A DNA stretch of 64,000 nt from assembly GCA_963555815.3 (NCBI GenBank), contig CAUVWX020000001.1:1355665-1419664 (forward strand), in the 5' to 3' direction. Below the pieces are notes generated by a model. That model had not been told where the DNA came from and did no database searches. It saw only the letters and a list, made by a program, of their open reading frames with translations. A program made the position numbers and the translations under genes. Positions within the stretch are counted from its first letter, which is position 1, and each line of letters starts with the position of its first letter. Below are positions 37,577 to 63,131 of this stretch, piece by piece. The stretch is from a bacterium. GTDB taxonomy: Bacteria > UBA8248 > JACPRG01 > G963555815.

Positions 37577-37666
37577 GGAGAGATGGCCGAGCGGTTGAAG
37601 GCGGTAGACTCGAAATCTATTGTGCGGGCAACCGCACCGGGGGTTCGAATCCCTCTCTCTCCGCCA
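37577..37666 (+). tRNA. tRNA-Ser(CGA)
   Basis: GGAGAGA acceptor stem, GTAGA-CTCGAAA-TCTAT anticodon arm, long variable arm, GGTTCGAATCC, GCCA end. Confidence 0.97.
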
Positions 37667-37927
37667 CGCCCTTACATCTTTGATATTGCTACGTGTTTTG
37701 TGGATCTCGTCCCCGTTTTTCTGCCCAAATCCCGGGCGCTTGCCGATGCTTTGGTGAGGGGCTTCGGTTGGCAGAGACGCTTCTGCGTGGCGTTGGCGTA
37801 GTGTTTTCACACGCCCGTCTCTCAAGCCCTTTTCAGTGGTACGGGTTTCGAGGGCGTCATCGGTTGACACGGCTCTCTATGATCTGTGCCCAGCGACAGA
37901 ACCGGCCGGCTTGGGATGGACCGGAGA

Positions 37928-39679
37928 TTAAGCGGGCGCGAACCCGAGCCGCTTCCTCTGGGCTTCCCAACTGAGCGGCAGACGGGTGTTTCTCATGAGC
38001 TTTTCGGCGGTCAGCTCGGGCGGTTGCTGCCCGTCGACGATGGCGGTGGCGATGTCCGGGGCGAGGTAGCTCAGCCGCAGCAACCGGGTGACATAGGAGG
38101 GTGAGACGCCTTCGACCTCGGCGATCCGCTGCAGGGTGAGATCGGGGTTTTGCTCCAATCGATCCTGGATGGCGAAGGCGCGCAGCAGCAGCCGGATCAG
38201 GCCCGGGGCGCACTTGGCATTGTTGCGGGCGCCGGGGACGACTAGTTTCATGCCCGTGCCAGCGCGCTTAAGGGCGATTGGAATATCCAGGATGATCGGA
38301 TGTTTGGCTGGCTGAGCGTCCTGCCTCGATCTTTTTATTGAGACGACGTCCGGTCCTGCCAGGAGGGTGGCCAGGGCCCGCTCGCCGTCGATCTCGATCA
38401 CGACGCGGGCGGACTCGACGATCACCCGCCGGAGAAGCGCATTGAGATAGGCCTTGGCCTGGTGCGGTTTCAGCTCAGGCCACCGGTCCGCGAGCGATTG
38501 CGCCTGGGTGATCAAGCTGGCATGAGCCGATGCCTCTTGAGGGTCTCCATCGATGACAGCGCTGATCGCGGCCGCATCAGCGAGCCAGTCCCTGAGACGG
38601 ACAGTAACGAGGCCTTCGAGATCCGCCGCCGGGAGGCGCCACCCCTTGCGGCCGGCTCGCTTGCCCTCGAGGATGAGATGGCGGGAGACGTAGTAGCGAT
38701 AGCGCCGTCCCTTCTTGACGGCATGGCTGGGTGAGAGGCCCTCGCCCTGCTCGTCAACGACCAGGCCCGTCAGCAGGCTCGGTTGCCGGGTCCCTTCTCG
38801 GCGCTCGCCGTTCGTGTTGGCGGCCAGGGTGGCTTGAACCTCATCCCACAGCGCTTCATCGACAATGGCCTCATGCTGGCCGGGATAGGCCTTGTCCTTG
38901 TGGACCATCTCGCCCCGGTAGAGGCGATTGTGGAGCAGGTGATACAGCGCCCCGCGGTTGATGGGTTTGCCGCCGACAATACTGCCGTCGCGCCTCACTC
39001 GCCGCTTGCTGGTGACGCCTTCGGCGGCGAGCCGGTCGCGCAGTTCACGCACGGATTCGATTTCCCGGTACTGGCGGATGATAGACCGGACCGTTTCGGC
39101 CTCGGCCTTGTTGACGATGAGCTTTTTGTCCTTCACATCGTAGCCCAAGGGCGGGTTGCCGCCCATCCACATCCCCTTCTTCTTCGAAGCGGCGATCTTG
39201 TCGCGGATGCGTTCGCCCGTGACCTCGCGCTCGAATTGGGCGAAGGAGAGCAGGACGTTCAAGGTCAGACGCCCCATCGAGGTGGTGGTGTTGAACTGCT
39301 GGGTGACCGAGACGAACGAGACGTCCTTTCGGTCGAAGATCTCCACAAGCCGGGCAAAATCCGACAGCGTCCGGGTCAGCCGGTCGACCTTGTAGACGAC
39401 GATCGTGTCGATCCGCCCGACCTTGACATCGGCGAGCAGGCGTTGCAACGCCGGGCGCTCCAGGGTGGCGCCGGAGACGCCGCCATCGTCGTAACAGGTG
39501 GGCAGCACGATCCAGCCCTCGTGCTTCTGGCTCGCGATATAGGCCTCGCAGGCCTCCCGCTGCGCCTGCAGCGAGTTGAAGTCCTGCTCAAGGCCTTCTT
39601 CGGAGGATTTGCGGGTGTAGATGGCGCAGCGCACCGTGGCCAGACTCCTCGCCCGTGGTGATTTCCGATGCTCAGCCAT
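37928..39679 (-). CDS. large serine recombinase (resolvase domain, recombinase domain and C-terminal HTH-like tail)
   Basis: CAIYTRKSSEEG, RPALQRLL, YKVDRLTR, FAQFERE, PLGY, NRLYRGE, HEAIVD. Confidence 0.95.
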   Translation of the reverse strand: MAEHRKSPRARSLATVRCAIYTRKSSEEGLEQDFNSLQAQREACEAYIASQKHEGWIVLPTCYDDGGVSGATLERPALQRLLADVKVGRIDTIVVYKVDRLTRTLSDFARLVEIFDRKDVSFVSVTQQFNTTTSMGRLTLNVLLSFAQFEREVTGERIRDKIAASKKKGMWMGGNPPLGYDVKDKKLIVNKAEAETVRSIIRQYREIESVRELRDRLAAEGVTSKRRVRRDGSIVGGKPINRGALYHLLHNRLYRGEMVHKDKAYPGQHEAIVDEALWDEVQATLAANTNGERREGTRQPSLLTGLVVDEQGEGLSPSHAVKKGRRYRYYVSRHLILEGKRAGRKGWRLPAADLEGLVTVRLRDWLADAAAISAVIDGDPQEASAHASLITQAQSLADRWPELKPHQAKAYLNALLRRVIVESARVVIEIDGERALATLLAGPDVVSIKRSRQDAQPAKHPIILDIPIALKRAGTGMKLVVPGARNNAKCAPGLIRLLLRAFAIQDRLEQNPDLTLQRIAEVEGVSPSYVTRLLRLSYLAPDIATAIVDGQQPPELTAEKLMRNTRLPLSWEAQRKRLGFAPA

Positions 39680-40160
39680 GGTCCGCCGCCGATGCGCTCT
39701 CGCCTGAAGGCCGCAGGCCGAAGAAGCGGGGACCGGACCAGTGCGCGCCCGTGATCCGTTGGGCGATAGCGGTCAAGGAACCATAGGCCTCCCCGTCGTA
39801 ATTGAAGCCGCCTTCGGTCGCGGTGACGACATGGGTCCGGCCCTGCCATTCGCGCACCAGCCGTGTGCCGGGGCGCACCTTGGTGCCGTTGTCGGGGGCG
39901 ACCCGGCCGGTCTCGGAGAAGGCTTTGGCCAGGGTCCGGAGACGCCGCCGCGTCGCACGGCTTAAGCCGCCATACACTTGCTCCTGGCGCTTGTAGGCGA
40001 TCCCCCGGATAAGCAGGTCCCGGCTGAGCCGCCGGGGCGGGGGCGCCCGGTGATGGCGGCGCCATTCATCGCGCAGCGCCGGCAGGTCCATCTCCTGGAT
40101 CTCGGTCATTTGGGTCTCGATCGTCGGCATCTTGTGGCCTCCTCCGGGCAGGCTCGTCAT
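39672..40160 (-). CDS. DUF2924-like protein
   Basis: IAYKRQEQVYGGL, PGTRLVREWQG, SLTAIAQRITGAHWSGPRFFGL. Overlaps the LSR start. Confidence 0.88.
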   Translation of the reverse strand: MTSLPGGGHKMPTIETQMTEIQEMDLPALRDEWRRHHRAPPPRRLSRDLLIRGIAYKRQEQVYGGLSRATRRRLRTLAKAFSETGRVAPDNGTKVRPGTRLVREWQGRTHVVTATEGGFNYDGEAYGSLTAIAQRITGAHWSGPRFFGLRPSGESASAADHG

Positions 40161-61031: not shown

Positions 61032-62779
61032 GCATCGGAAATCACCACGGGCGAGGAGTCTGGCCACGGTGCGCTGCGCCATCTACACCCGCAAATCCTC
61101 CGAAGAAGGCCTGGAACAAGACTTCAACTCGCTGCAGGCGCAGCGGGAGGCCTGCGAGGCCTATATCGCGAGCCAGAAGCACGAGGGCTGGATCGTGCTG
61201 CCCACCTTTTACGACGATGGCGGTGTCTCCGGCGCCACCCTGCAGCGGCCGGCGTTGCAGCGTTTGCTCGGCGATGTCAAGGTCGGGCGGATCGACACGA
61301 TCGTCGTCTACAAGGTCGACCGGCTGACCCGGACGCTGTCGGATTTTGCCCGGCTTGTGGAGATTTTCGATCGAAAGGACGTCTCCTTCGTCTCCGTCAC
61401 CCAGCAGTTCAACACCACCACCTCGATGGGGCGTCTGACCTTGAACGTCCTGCTCTCCTTCGCCCAGTTCGAGCGCGAGGTCACGGGCGAACGCATCCGC
61501 GACAAGATCGCCGCCTCGAAGAAGAAGGGGATGTGGATGGGCGGCAACCCGCCCTTGGGCTACGATGTGAAGGACAAAAAGCTCATCGTCAACAAGGCCG
61601 AGGCCGAAACGGTCCGGTCTATCTTCCGCCAGTACCGGGAAATCGAATCCGTGCGTGAACTGCGCGACCGGCTCGCCGCCGAAGGCGTCACCAGCAAGCG
61701 GCGAGTGAGGCGCGACGGCAGTATTGTCGGCGGCAAACCCATCAACCGGGGGGCGCTTTATCACCTGCTCCACAATCGCCTCTACCGGGGCGAGATGGTC
61801 CACAAGGACAAGGCCTATCCCGGCCAGCATGAGGCCATTGTCGATGAAGCGCTGTGGGATGAGGTTCAAGCCACCCTGGCCGCCAACACGAACGGCGAGC
61901 GCCGAGAAGGGACCCGGCAACCGAGCCTGCTGACGGGGCTTGTCGTTGACGAGCAGGGCGAGGGCCTCTCACCCAGCCATGCCGTCAAGAAGGGACGGCG
62001 CTATCGCTACTACGTCTCCCGCCATCTCATCCTGGAGGGCAAGCGAGCCGGCCGCAAGGGGTGGCGCCTCCCGGCGGCGGATCTCGAAGGCCTCGTTACT
62101 GTCCGTCTCAGGGACTGGCTCGCTGATGCGGCCGCGATCAGCGCTGTCATCGATGGAGACCCTCAAGAGGCCTCGGCTCATGCCCGCTTGATCACCCAGG
62201 CGCAATCGCTCGCGGACCGGTGGCCTGAGCTGAAACCGCACCAGGCCAAGGCCTATCTCAATGCGCTTCTCCGGCGGGTGATCGTCGAGTCCGCCCGCAT
62301 CGTGATCGAGATCGACGGCGAGCGGGCCCTGGCCACCCTCCTGGCAGGACCGGACGTCGTCTCAATAAAAAGATCGAGGCAGGACGCTCAGCCAGCCAAA
62401 CATCCGATCATCCTGGATATTCCAATCGCCCTTAAGCGCGCTGGCACGGGCATGAAACTAGTCGTCCCCGGCGCCCGCAACAATGCCAAGTGCGCCCCGG
62501 GCCTGCTCCGGCTGCTGCTGCGCGCCTTCGCCATCCAGGATCGATTGGAGCAAAACCCCGAGCTCACCCTGCAGCGGATCGCCGAGGCCGAAGGCGTCTC
62601 ACCTTCCTATGCCACCCGGTTGCACTGCGTCTTGAGCTACCTTGCCCCGGACATCGTCACTGCCATCGTCGACGGGCAGCAACCGCCCGAGCTGACCGCC
62701 GAAAAGCTCATGAAGAAACACCCGCCTGCCGTTCAGGTGGGAAGCCCAGCGAAAGCGGCTTGGGTTCAAGCACGCTTGA
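61024..62779 (+). CDS. large serine recombinase (copy 2), with indels near 62625 and 62715
   Basis: Near-identical to the left LSR. The homologous C-terminus AQRKRLGFKHA* ends at TGA 62779 in a shifted frame. Confidence 0.92.
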
Positions 62780-63041
62780 CCTCTGATCCATCCCAAGCCG
62801 CGGCCGGTTCTGTCGCTGGGCACAGATCAGAGAGAGCCGTGTCAACCGATGACGCCCTCGAAACCCGTACCACTAAAAAGGGCTTGAGAGACGGGCGTGT
62901 GAAAACGGTACGCCAACGCCACGCAGAAGCGTCTCTGCCAACCGAAGCCCCTCACCAGAGCATCGGCAAGCGCCCGGGATTTGGGCGGAAAACGGGGACG
63001 AGATCCACAAAAAACGTAGCAATATCAGAGATATAAGGGCG

Positions 63042-63131
63042 TGGCGGAGAGGGCGGGATTCGAACCCGCGGTACAGTTACCCATACACACGCTTTCCAAG
63101 CGTGCTCCTTAAGCCACTCGGACACCTCTCC
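63042..63131 (-). tRNA. tRNA-Ser(GGA)
   Basis: Reverse complement reads GGAGAGGTGTCCGAGTGG...CACGC-TTGGAAA-GCGTG, long variable arm, GGTTCGAATCC, GCCA. Confidence 0.97.

Follow-up and report, generated by a model that had tools for sequence, protein, structure and literature searches.

Large serine recombinases with a predicted DUF2924 partner appear to insert mobile elements at the ends of tRNA genes, and their mirror-image layout on a bacterial contig is probably a mis-assembly

In this study, we have investigated a 64,000-nucleotide stretch of bacterial DNA (contig CAUVWX020000001.1 of assembly GCA_963555815.3, positions 1,355,665 to 1,419,664), which we refer to as the window and whose right end is the end of the contig (C1). 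It contains two inverted copies of an element that encodes a large serine recombinase (LSR) and, directly upstream, a protein of the DUF2924 family, each copy abutting a tRNA-Ser gene. Sequence comparison very strongly suggests that this is a mobile element, which is integrated by its LSR among the final six nucleotides of tRNA genes. The repeated arm itself is genuine mobile DNA, and the results on its family stand irrespective of the mirror layout, whose likeliest reading is a chimeric assembly, the outcome that the first-pass annotation of this DNA had itself named as speaking against its model. Integration at tRNA ends combined with a mis-assembled mirror provides, in our view, the best explanation as a whole and a reasonably probable one.

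Both ARAGORN and Rfam place a rightward tRNA-Ser(CGA) and a leftward tRNA-Ser(GGA) at the outer ends of the mirror (Table 1), as the first-pass annotation had claimed, together with near-identical inverted arms of about 2.6 kb and T arms that differ between the two tRNAs, both of which are confirmed. An alignment of the two arms (37626-40229 and 60474-63082) spans 2,610 nt with 95.4% identity, and in each arm an LSR containing the domains PF00239 and PF07508 reads toward the tRNA with DUF2924 directly upstream. Their 113 mismatches rule out a single collapsed identical repeat and thus define two real variants. The similarity extends further inward to a ParB-methylase (41256-42547 versus 57085-58376, 77%) and to DUF5681 genes on both sides, whereas the terminase large subunit is kept in the right element only and was deleted in the left arm. 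Between the arms, two direct copies of an IS5-family insertion sequence enclose a restriction gene, a Mod methyltransferase and a UvrD-like helicase, followed by an IS3 piece and genes with helix-turn-helix (HTH) and IrrE-like domains.

The limits of the left insertion are defined by a close relative, the congener G001, whose tRNA-Ser(CGA) is empty and runs straight into sequence matching position 1888 of a second host contig (C2), followed by a DEAD-box helicase, typA, the resident tRNA-Ser(GGA) and dnaX. Because the empty site continues at C2:1888, the left limit of the island is at 37667, and its other limit lies on C2, beyond an assembly gap. There, the attachment site (C2:1888-1893) has CCGCCA in common with both the empty site and the near junction; nothing beyond these six bases is shared, and the tRNA stays intact. 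The short core postulated by the first-pass annotation thus exists, although it comprises the 6 nt CCGCCA and not CTCTCCGCCA. Equally, its statement that no distal attachment site lies between the arms is correct for the window, where we found no far arm, yet a far site exists on C2, the only match in the genome (C2:1711-1893). This far junction is bridged by single contigs in two sequencing runs (X13 record 18 with 0 differences, and X11 record 11). As X13 may stem from the assembled population itself, it provides no independent evidence; the runs X1 and X5 contain little or no host DNA. With the far arms of the newest element type, found in Acidobacteriota, the far arm on C2 shares only 73% identity, from which a second, older element is predicted in the gap between C1 and C2. 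Between tRNA-Ser(CGA) and its end at C2:1893, the host island is likely to comprise a stack of two or more elements. Its far end (L003:1-1893, the start of C2) carries an HTH_37 gene and other small cargo.

The host genome contains five tRNA-Ser genes. A third copy of the element resides at tRNA-Ser(GCT) (C1:688741) and is 99.0% identical to the left arm over 6.3 kb, with the identity ending at about 43886. This copy (L001:4743-20000 and L002, C1:688742-707017) carries a different Res/Mod allele; no far arm was found for it, and 2.57 kb present in G001 are missing at its site. Where the identity ends, the window (43887-43912) and the third copy (L001 ~10960-10987) each continue with a different patch of ~27 nt and then with IS5, which is oppositely oriented in the two. 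The resident tRNA-Ser(GGA) at C2:5846 has no element attached, and the copy in the window is an extra one.

The association with tRNA ends extends to the family. A scan of species genomes detected at least 573 relatives of the LSR, the best 80 of which were kept, giving 79 loci. When the neighbouring tRNAs were tabulated for the 62 loci with at least 1 kb of downstream sequence, as the first-pass annotation had suggested, 39 showed an intact convergent tRNA within 1 kb and 23 did not. These tRNAs are of the types Ser (22; GGA 9, CGA 6, GCT 5, TGA 2), Gln (13), Met (2) and Ala (2), with their ends located about 210-480 nt from the LSR stop. Rescoring of 66 loci, after 13 with less than 500 nt had been dropped, assigned 40 to tRNAs, 8 to joints of the type expected for a phage attachment site (attP) and 4 to T-arm remnants, leaving 14 with nothing, and the two site patterns matched none of 116 control segments. 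In seven of the loci lacking a tRNA, a search for an alternative RNA target returned no Rfam match. On a quick tree of 47 sequences, from which L080 was dropped as frameshifted, eight near-identical LSRs, grouped with an SH-aLRT support of 100, are spread over all four Ser anticodons; the 15 Gln users cluster, requiring two changes compared to a mean of 13 after shuffling. The first-pass proposal that one LSR type uses several Ser isoacceptors via a short core is thus borne out by eight near-identical enzymes, four anticodons and a core of 6 nt.

Additional features of the attachment sites are revealed by complete elements, which carry CCGCCA at both ends in case of a Ser tRNA (L060, 8.8 kb) and CCACCA at both ends in case of a Met tRNA (L086, 9.8 kb). 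Across relatives of about 50% identity, the far arm retains TTCCCTG repeats, GAGAC, GTTCGC and GACT, followed by a core matching the target. The distance of the motif TTCG from the end is 22 nt in each of the 15 distinct far arms, a value imposed by the search pattern, and 19 nt in 43 of 48 tRNAs, so that the motif is shifted by 3 nt in the far arm. In the near arm, 26 of 43 related loci carry a TAA-N4-TTGATAT-like motif no more than 26 nt away from the tRNA end, compared to 5% in shuffles; when the symmetry of far and near arms was compared by eye, the spacing of this near-arm motif was seen to vary among relatives. On the downstream side of the target, no sequence conservation was seen. Stacked copies are connected by joints of the form far arm, core and near arm. 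In four Acidobacteriota genomes, 23 of 30 loci remained after exclusion of duplicates and short paralogues, with 12 at attP-type joints, 8 at tRNA ends and 3 at neither. One of these genomes contains a very long tandem array with elements in both orientations (G031:C4 ~1.24-2.66 Mb; loci L120, L123, L126, L135, L137, L138, L140, L141 and L144), where 10 of 14 examined among 19 LSR matches are located at attP-type joints. A shorter LSR paralogue of 48% identity, covering residues 8-400 only, is present in the genomes G031 and G034 (L128, L146, L147).

The left LSR combines an N-terminal resolvase domain (PF00239, E 1e-39), whose catalytic Ser 25 is invariant in 37 sequences, with a recombinase domain (PF07508) and a large C-terminal region, and Foldseek matches its model to structures of Bxb1 (E 4e-15), SPbeta-type and phiC31 integrases. 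In this model, whose predicted template modelling score is only 0.43, a beta-rich region with inserted helices (residues 307-480) lacking invariant cysteines is followed by an extra helical domain at 490-580. Residues 485-583 (window 37931-38227) resemble stand-alone proteins of about 100 residues (feature score 0.95-0.96), with a weak lead towards HTH_ParB in 10% of one cluster. Of 74 loci, 73 carry DUF2924 directly upstream of the LSR, and the overlap of its stop with the LSR start suggests translational coupling of the two. Since other genes are sparse (among 52 relatives terminase 12, methylase 13, DUF5681 7), LSR and DUF2924 form the constant unit of these elements. Structure prediction of the complex places residues 14-87 of DUF2924 on residues 492-572 of the LSR with a score of 0.85, compared to 0.00 for the best of three controls; the runs agree in at least 64% of contacts, and the pLDDT of the partner is at least 76. 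In the calibration, 116 of 157 solved pairs and 2 of 215 mismatched ones attained the mark applied to this score, which is only a rough guide here as we supplied our own alignments. DUF2924 is thus predicted to bind the extra C-terminal domain of the LSR. Its own model (39672-40160) contains SAP/LEM/Rho-N-like N-terminal helices and a C-terminal domain similar to the CcrM C-terminus and MPND (Z ~6), a domain known as RAMA, and the modelled fold hints at DNA binding; the best match of the fold search (Z 6.7) lies below the threshold of 8 and is a lead only. In a search for fusions, 33 of 69 longer matches combined DUF2924 with a resolvase domain, a weak indication from mostly singleton sequences that might reflect frame errors where the two genes overlap.

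Taken together, these features suggest a mechanism in which the LSR would read only the tRNA side of its target, namely the T-loop motif and the acceptor end, with GTTCG serving as an outer motif at different spacing in attP and in the bacterial site attB. Such different spacing would be in line with a general rule by which the second DNA-binding domain (DBD2) of LSRs is positioned differently on attP and attB (PMC12286644). With the downstream flank being free, the target would survive each insertion and be rebuilt by it, and new elements would push old ones away, leaving attP-type joints behind. One-sided recognition would therefore explain both the use of several tRNAs and the tandem arrays. 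DUF2924 could act as accessory or directionality subunit on the repeated motifs of the attP of about 250 nt, and the presence of a terminase suggests that some members may travel by helper-phage packaging. We can tentatively envisage, with somewhat less confidence than would favour it outright, a widespread two-subunit integrase of LSR and DUF2924 with a reusable one-sided target composed of the universal tRNA T-loop and the acceptor end, which integrates among the final six bases, builds arrays of at least ten elements and moves between phyla of sponge microbiomes.

A second question concerns the origin of the right part of the window. Its tRNA-Ser(GGA) differs by 19 nt from the resident copy and by 0, 1 and 2 nt from those of G068, G067 and G070, which belong to the same order as the Acidobacteriota metagenome-assembled genome (MAG) G034; copies in two Acidobacteriota MAGs show 3 and 5 differences. 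In G067, the same upstream bases and the same divergent uxuA are found beside the tRNA, whose end is empty. With the query used, no match to uxuA was obtained in 50 further genomes from the class to which the host belongs, and 15 of 76 genomes in the order of G034 gave one. The best named matches of host RecR, the only indication of its taxonomic position, are from Nitrospinota (66-73%). The right tRNA and uxuA thus belong to another lineage, contrary to the first-pass assumption that two host tRNAs were joined. The uxuA piece is recovered as one contig, 99.8% identical to the window with one mismatch and one gap, in two sponge-associated runs at depths of 40.7 and 39.3, which is 7-10 times deeper than the single-copy genes of the host (about 4 and 5.7), and C1 stops 869 nt into this donor chromosome. 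The restriction cassette has the orientation of the right LSR and in G033 lies 1.1 kb inside the far end of that orientation, which makes IS5 copy 1 the probable start of the foreign part. In G031, this IS5 is present in more than 20 near-full copies at 97-99% identity; its summed depth exceeds 8,000 in two runs. To the right of IS5 copy 1, six frame-breaking insertions are present in the window only and in none of the homologues that cover these sites (14.8 kb with a coverage of at least two homologues), whereas none was detected in 6.0 kb compared in the left arm, a contrast in agreement with a contig end of thin support. Stray bases occur to the right of 44 kb, among them extra ones near 62620-62720 by which the frame of the right LSR runs on, and host pieces on C2 match X13 with 0 differences. 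We thus consider it rather likely that the mirror is a mis-assembly joined at IS5 copy 1, with the donor likely being a more abundant sponge symbiont of Acidobacteriota lineage and the joined piece of 19-20 kb likely comprising a sibling copy, its tRNA and a piece of chromosome. Two further lines of evidence were set aside: differences in 4-mer composition between host and donor are too small, and the 2-bp target duplications of IS5 depend on where its end is drawn.

Several observations weigh against this combined interpretation. No recognisable site is found in 14 of 66 relatives, and the loci counted by the site patterns are those from which the patterns had been drawn; the predicted interface of DUF2924 appears to be off the surface where verified recombination directionality factors (RDFs) are predicted. 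The depth shows that a donor exists and not that the host is devoid of a captured copy, since in contigs from short reads a host version at low copy number would be merged with the abundant one of the donor. Finally, the contrast of six insertions versus none is small, and any contig end may be poorly polished. It is accordingly conceivable, albeit unlikely, that the layout is real and that the island has recently captured at least 19 kb of an Acidobacteriota-lineage chromosome, containing the sibling element, tRNA-Ser(GGA) and uxuA, via shared IS5 or element DNA. The family indeed crosses phyla, as copies in G033 match the left-arm variant over 5.9 kb with 94% identity, but a capture is disfavoured by a contig that ends shortly after entering the donor chromosome and whose uxuA piece is nearly identical to a much deeper contig. 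Whereas the high identity of IS5 across these genomes, the opposite-facing copies within G031 and the fact that the right part would sit inside a host island with its far end on C2 are all compatible with capture, the window-only indels are exclusively insertions and are all located right of IS5, in contrast to the perfectly matching host pieces on C2. Moreover, cross-phylum chimeras are a documented error of long-read metagenome assembly (10.1101/2025.04.22.649783).

It appears very unlikely that the LSR does not choose tRNAs at all, with the islands being placed by another integrase or the far arm being a decayed passive tRNA fragment. The relatives lacking a site and the notion that the far-arm motif could be an old tRNA copy would accommodate this view, and tRNA ends are general hotspots of islands according to the accessible sections of PMC4383910. 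However, the distance of about 210-480 nt between tRNA end and LSR stop in the loci counted, the correspondence of target type with the LSR tree and the fixed spacing of the far-arm motif across relatives of 50% identity, with a core matching the type of tRNA, argue against it, as does the finding that the open reading frames (ORFs) scanned in the window and the third copy encode only serine recombinases and no tyrosine integrase. The model of the first-pass annotation, in which sibling insertions at two host tRNA-Ser genes were fused by a deletion mediated by insertion sequences, leaving an invertible segment of about 20 kb, would agree with the inverted arms, the two IS5 copies between them and the absence of a far arm inside the window, but it is contradicted by the resident tRNA-Ser(GGA), which in G001 lies on the same strand 3.9 kb downstream of tRNA-Ser(CGA) with intervening genes that survive in the host (G000), where the backbone resumes intact on C2, as well as by the deviating tRNA-Ser(GGA), the negative search for uxuA in 50 class relatives and the non-host sequence flanking the right repeat at the contig end, and is thus highly improbable; the mirror island is probably not a real chromosome structure.

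The elements share with Bxb1, phiC31, SPbeta and A118/LI integrases the resolvase and recombinase domains, the fold and a very short core, but they differ in their use of several types of tRNA 3' ends, their extra C-terminal HTH-like domain with a predicted partner, their long attP with repeated motifs and the unconserved downstream side of their target. A resemblance to phage satellites of the PICI type (phage-inducible chromosomal islands), whose integrase is of the tyrosine type, concerns the integrase at the edge, the defence cargo, the TerL and DUF5681 genes of the right element and the lack of a capsid match among the ORFs scanned. In contrast to PICIs, the integrase is of the serine type, and the terminase is a large subunit, detected in only 12 of 52 relatives and deleted in the left arm. 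A search of the window, in which the elements are incomplete, found no primase, replicase or other replication gene. The position of the ParB-methylase directly upstream of terminase genes is reminiscent of the phage ParB-Tls module and is described for Paracoccus prophages in the accessible text of PMC6536676, which also reports a serine integrase at a tRNA in phage Pami6. Serine integrases at tRNAs are thus not unheard of. Tycheposons, as far as the accessible text on them extends, are similarly tRNA-adjacent islands with tandem junctions and sometimes packaging genes, although 910 of 937 carry tyrosine recombinases and 27 of 937 an LSR, and their sites of about 40 nt leave partial tRNAs, with each tRNA having its own integrase (10.1101/2020.12.28.424599). 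In our case, the core is 6 nt long and one enzyme clade serves four isoacceptors; tycheposon-type replication and excisionase genes were not found among the ORFs scanned, in an island that crosses an assembly gap. Islander-type islands share an intact tRNA at one end, an attP of about 250 bp and tandem arrays, and are defined, in the accessible part of the source, by a tyrosine integrase and a displaced tRNA fragment (PMC4383910). Both features are absent here, where only six shared nucleotides and a shifted GTTCG are found, and a search for Islander-type islands would therefore miss this family. Like DUF2924, the RDFs of LSRs are small adjacent proteins predicted on the C-terminal half of the integrase, but verified ones are, in the accessible text, predicted at the junction between DBD2 and the coiled coil (PMC12286644), whereas DUF2924 is predicted on the terminal domain beyond the DBD2-like region. 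Given this apparent difference in binding surface, DUF2924 might not be a classical RDF but an accessory subunit. By domain and fold the elements are LSR elements that act like islands at tRNA genes or tycheposons but show neither a tyrosine integrase nor a displaced tRNA fragment nor a separate integrase for each tRNA.

Our literature search retrieved no description of a tRNA-end family composed of LSR and DUF2924, although the TIGER database or subscription papers may hold one. To our knowledge, the targeting of tRNAs has long been treated as the territory of tyrosine integrases and not of serine integrases. Island finders seek a duplicated tRNA fragment, a rule to which a family of serine integrases with a 6-nt core is invisible, even though it is common, with at least 573 relatives. 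If the tRNA side of the target suffices, this would account for the growth of islands in tandem and for the spread of restriction-modification cargo across phyla, and it would offer an integrase with a native and non-disruptive target in many species, permitting insertion without a landing pad in almost any bacterium. The predicted interaction of DUF2924 assigns a testable role to a domain of unknown function, and the locus itself serves as a warning that, in a MAG of high quality built from long reads, genomes from different phyla can become fused via the mobile DNA they have in common.

Table 1. Features of the window between the two tRNA-Ser genes and up to the contig end.
Feature	Position	Strand	Remarks
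tRNA-Ser(CGA), host, intact	37577..37666	+	ARAGORN and Rfam; empty syntenic site in congener G001
Near-junction core CCGCCA	37661-37666		last 6 nt of tRNA-Ser(CGA)
Element arm beside tRNA (P' arm)	37667..37927	+	TAA-N4-TTGATAT-like motif
Left LSR, 583 aa, intact	37928..39679	-	extra C-terminal HTH-like helical domain of ~95 aa
Left DUF2924	39672..40160	-	stop overlaps LSR start; predicted partner of LSR C-terminal domain
Remnant (68 nt) of terminase large subunit gene 3' end	40437..40504	-	82% to 60259-60326
Left DUF5681 protein	40775..41164	-	putative small-terminase role, from position
Left ParB-N6/N4 DNA methyltransferase	41161..42528	-	
ORF of 195 aa	42832..43419	-	no family match
IS5-family element, copy 1	43913..45028	.	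likely join point of foreign DNA
BPTD_3080-family restriction endonuclease (type III Res-like)	45478..48556	+	split by extra base near 47992
Type III Mod methyltransferase	48559..51493	+	split by one extra base near 50768
UvrD-like helicase	51498..53609	+	part of Res/Mod cassette
IS5-family element, copy 2	53922..55035	.	98.6% to copy 1, same orientation
IS3-type element, truncated	55036..55780	-	
Cro/C1 HTH gene and IrrE/ImmA-like (M78) gene	55846..56904	+	likely induction switch (putative role)
Right-element ParB-N6/N4 methyltransferase	57113..58507	+	
Right-element DUF5681	58549..58923	+	start approximate
Terminase large subunit	58916..60349	+	start approximate
Right-element DUF2924	60543..61031	+	
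Right-element LSR	61024..63036	+	98% identical to left LSR over first 530 aa
tRNA-Ser(GGA), foreign	63042..63131	-	ARAGORN and Rfam
Mannonate dehydratase (uxuA), 5' part	63409..64000	+	frameshifted, cut by contig end

Beyond the elements, a further Res-Mod-helicase cassette with 66-81% identity to that of the window is found away from the LSR copies (L004, C1:279911-288286), and in G001 tRNA-Ser(TGA) is followed by 1.5 kb of inserted DNA that yields another tRNA-Ser(TGA)-like call (L024:10359-11998). On the other side of tRNA-Ser(CGA), a block of 5.4 kb (32042-37437) has moved next to this gene: its first part (32042-33359, CoA-transferase III region) is 100% identical to C1:342469-343786, and the remainder (33402-37437), encoding an amidase, a nitrilase-family protein, a molybdopterin oxidoreductase and a Rieske protein, is located elsewhere in G001. 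Further upstream, the regions 14721-16709 and 26390-26989 contain in-frame-sized repeats of 237, 141-144 and 312-318 nt, of which those of 144 nt are presumably Kelch-like.

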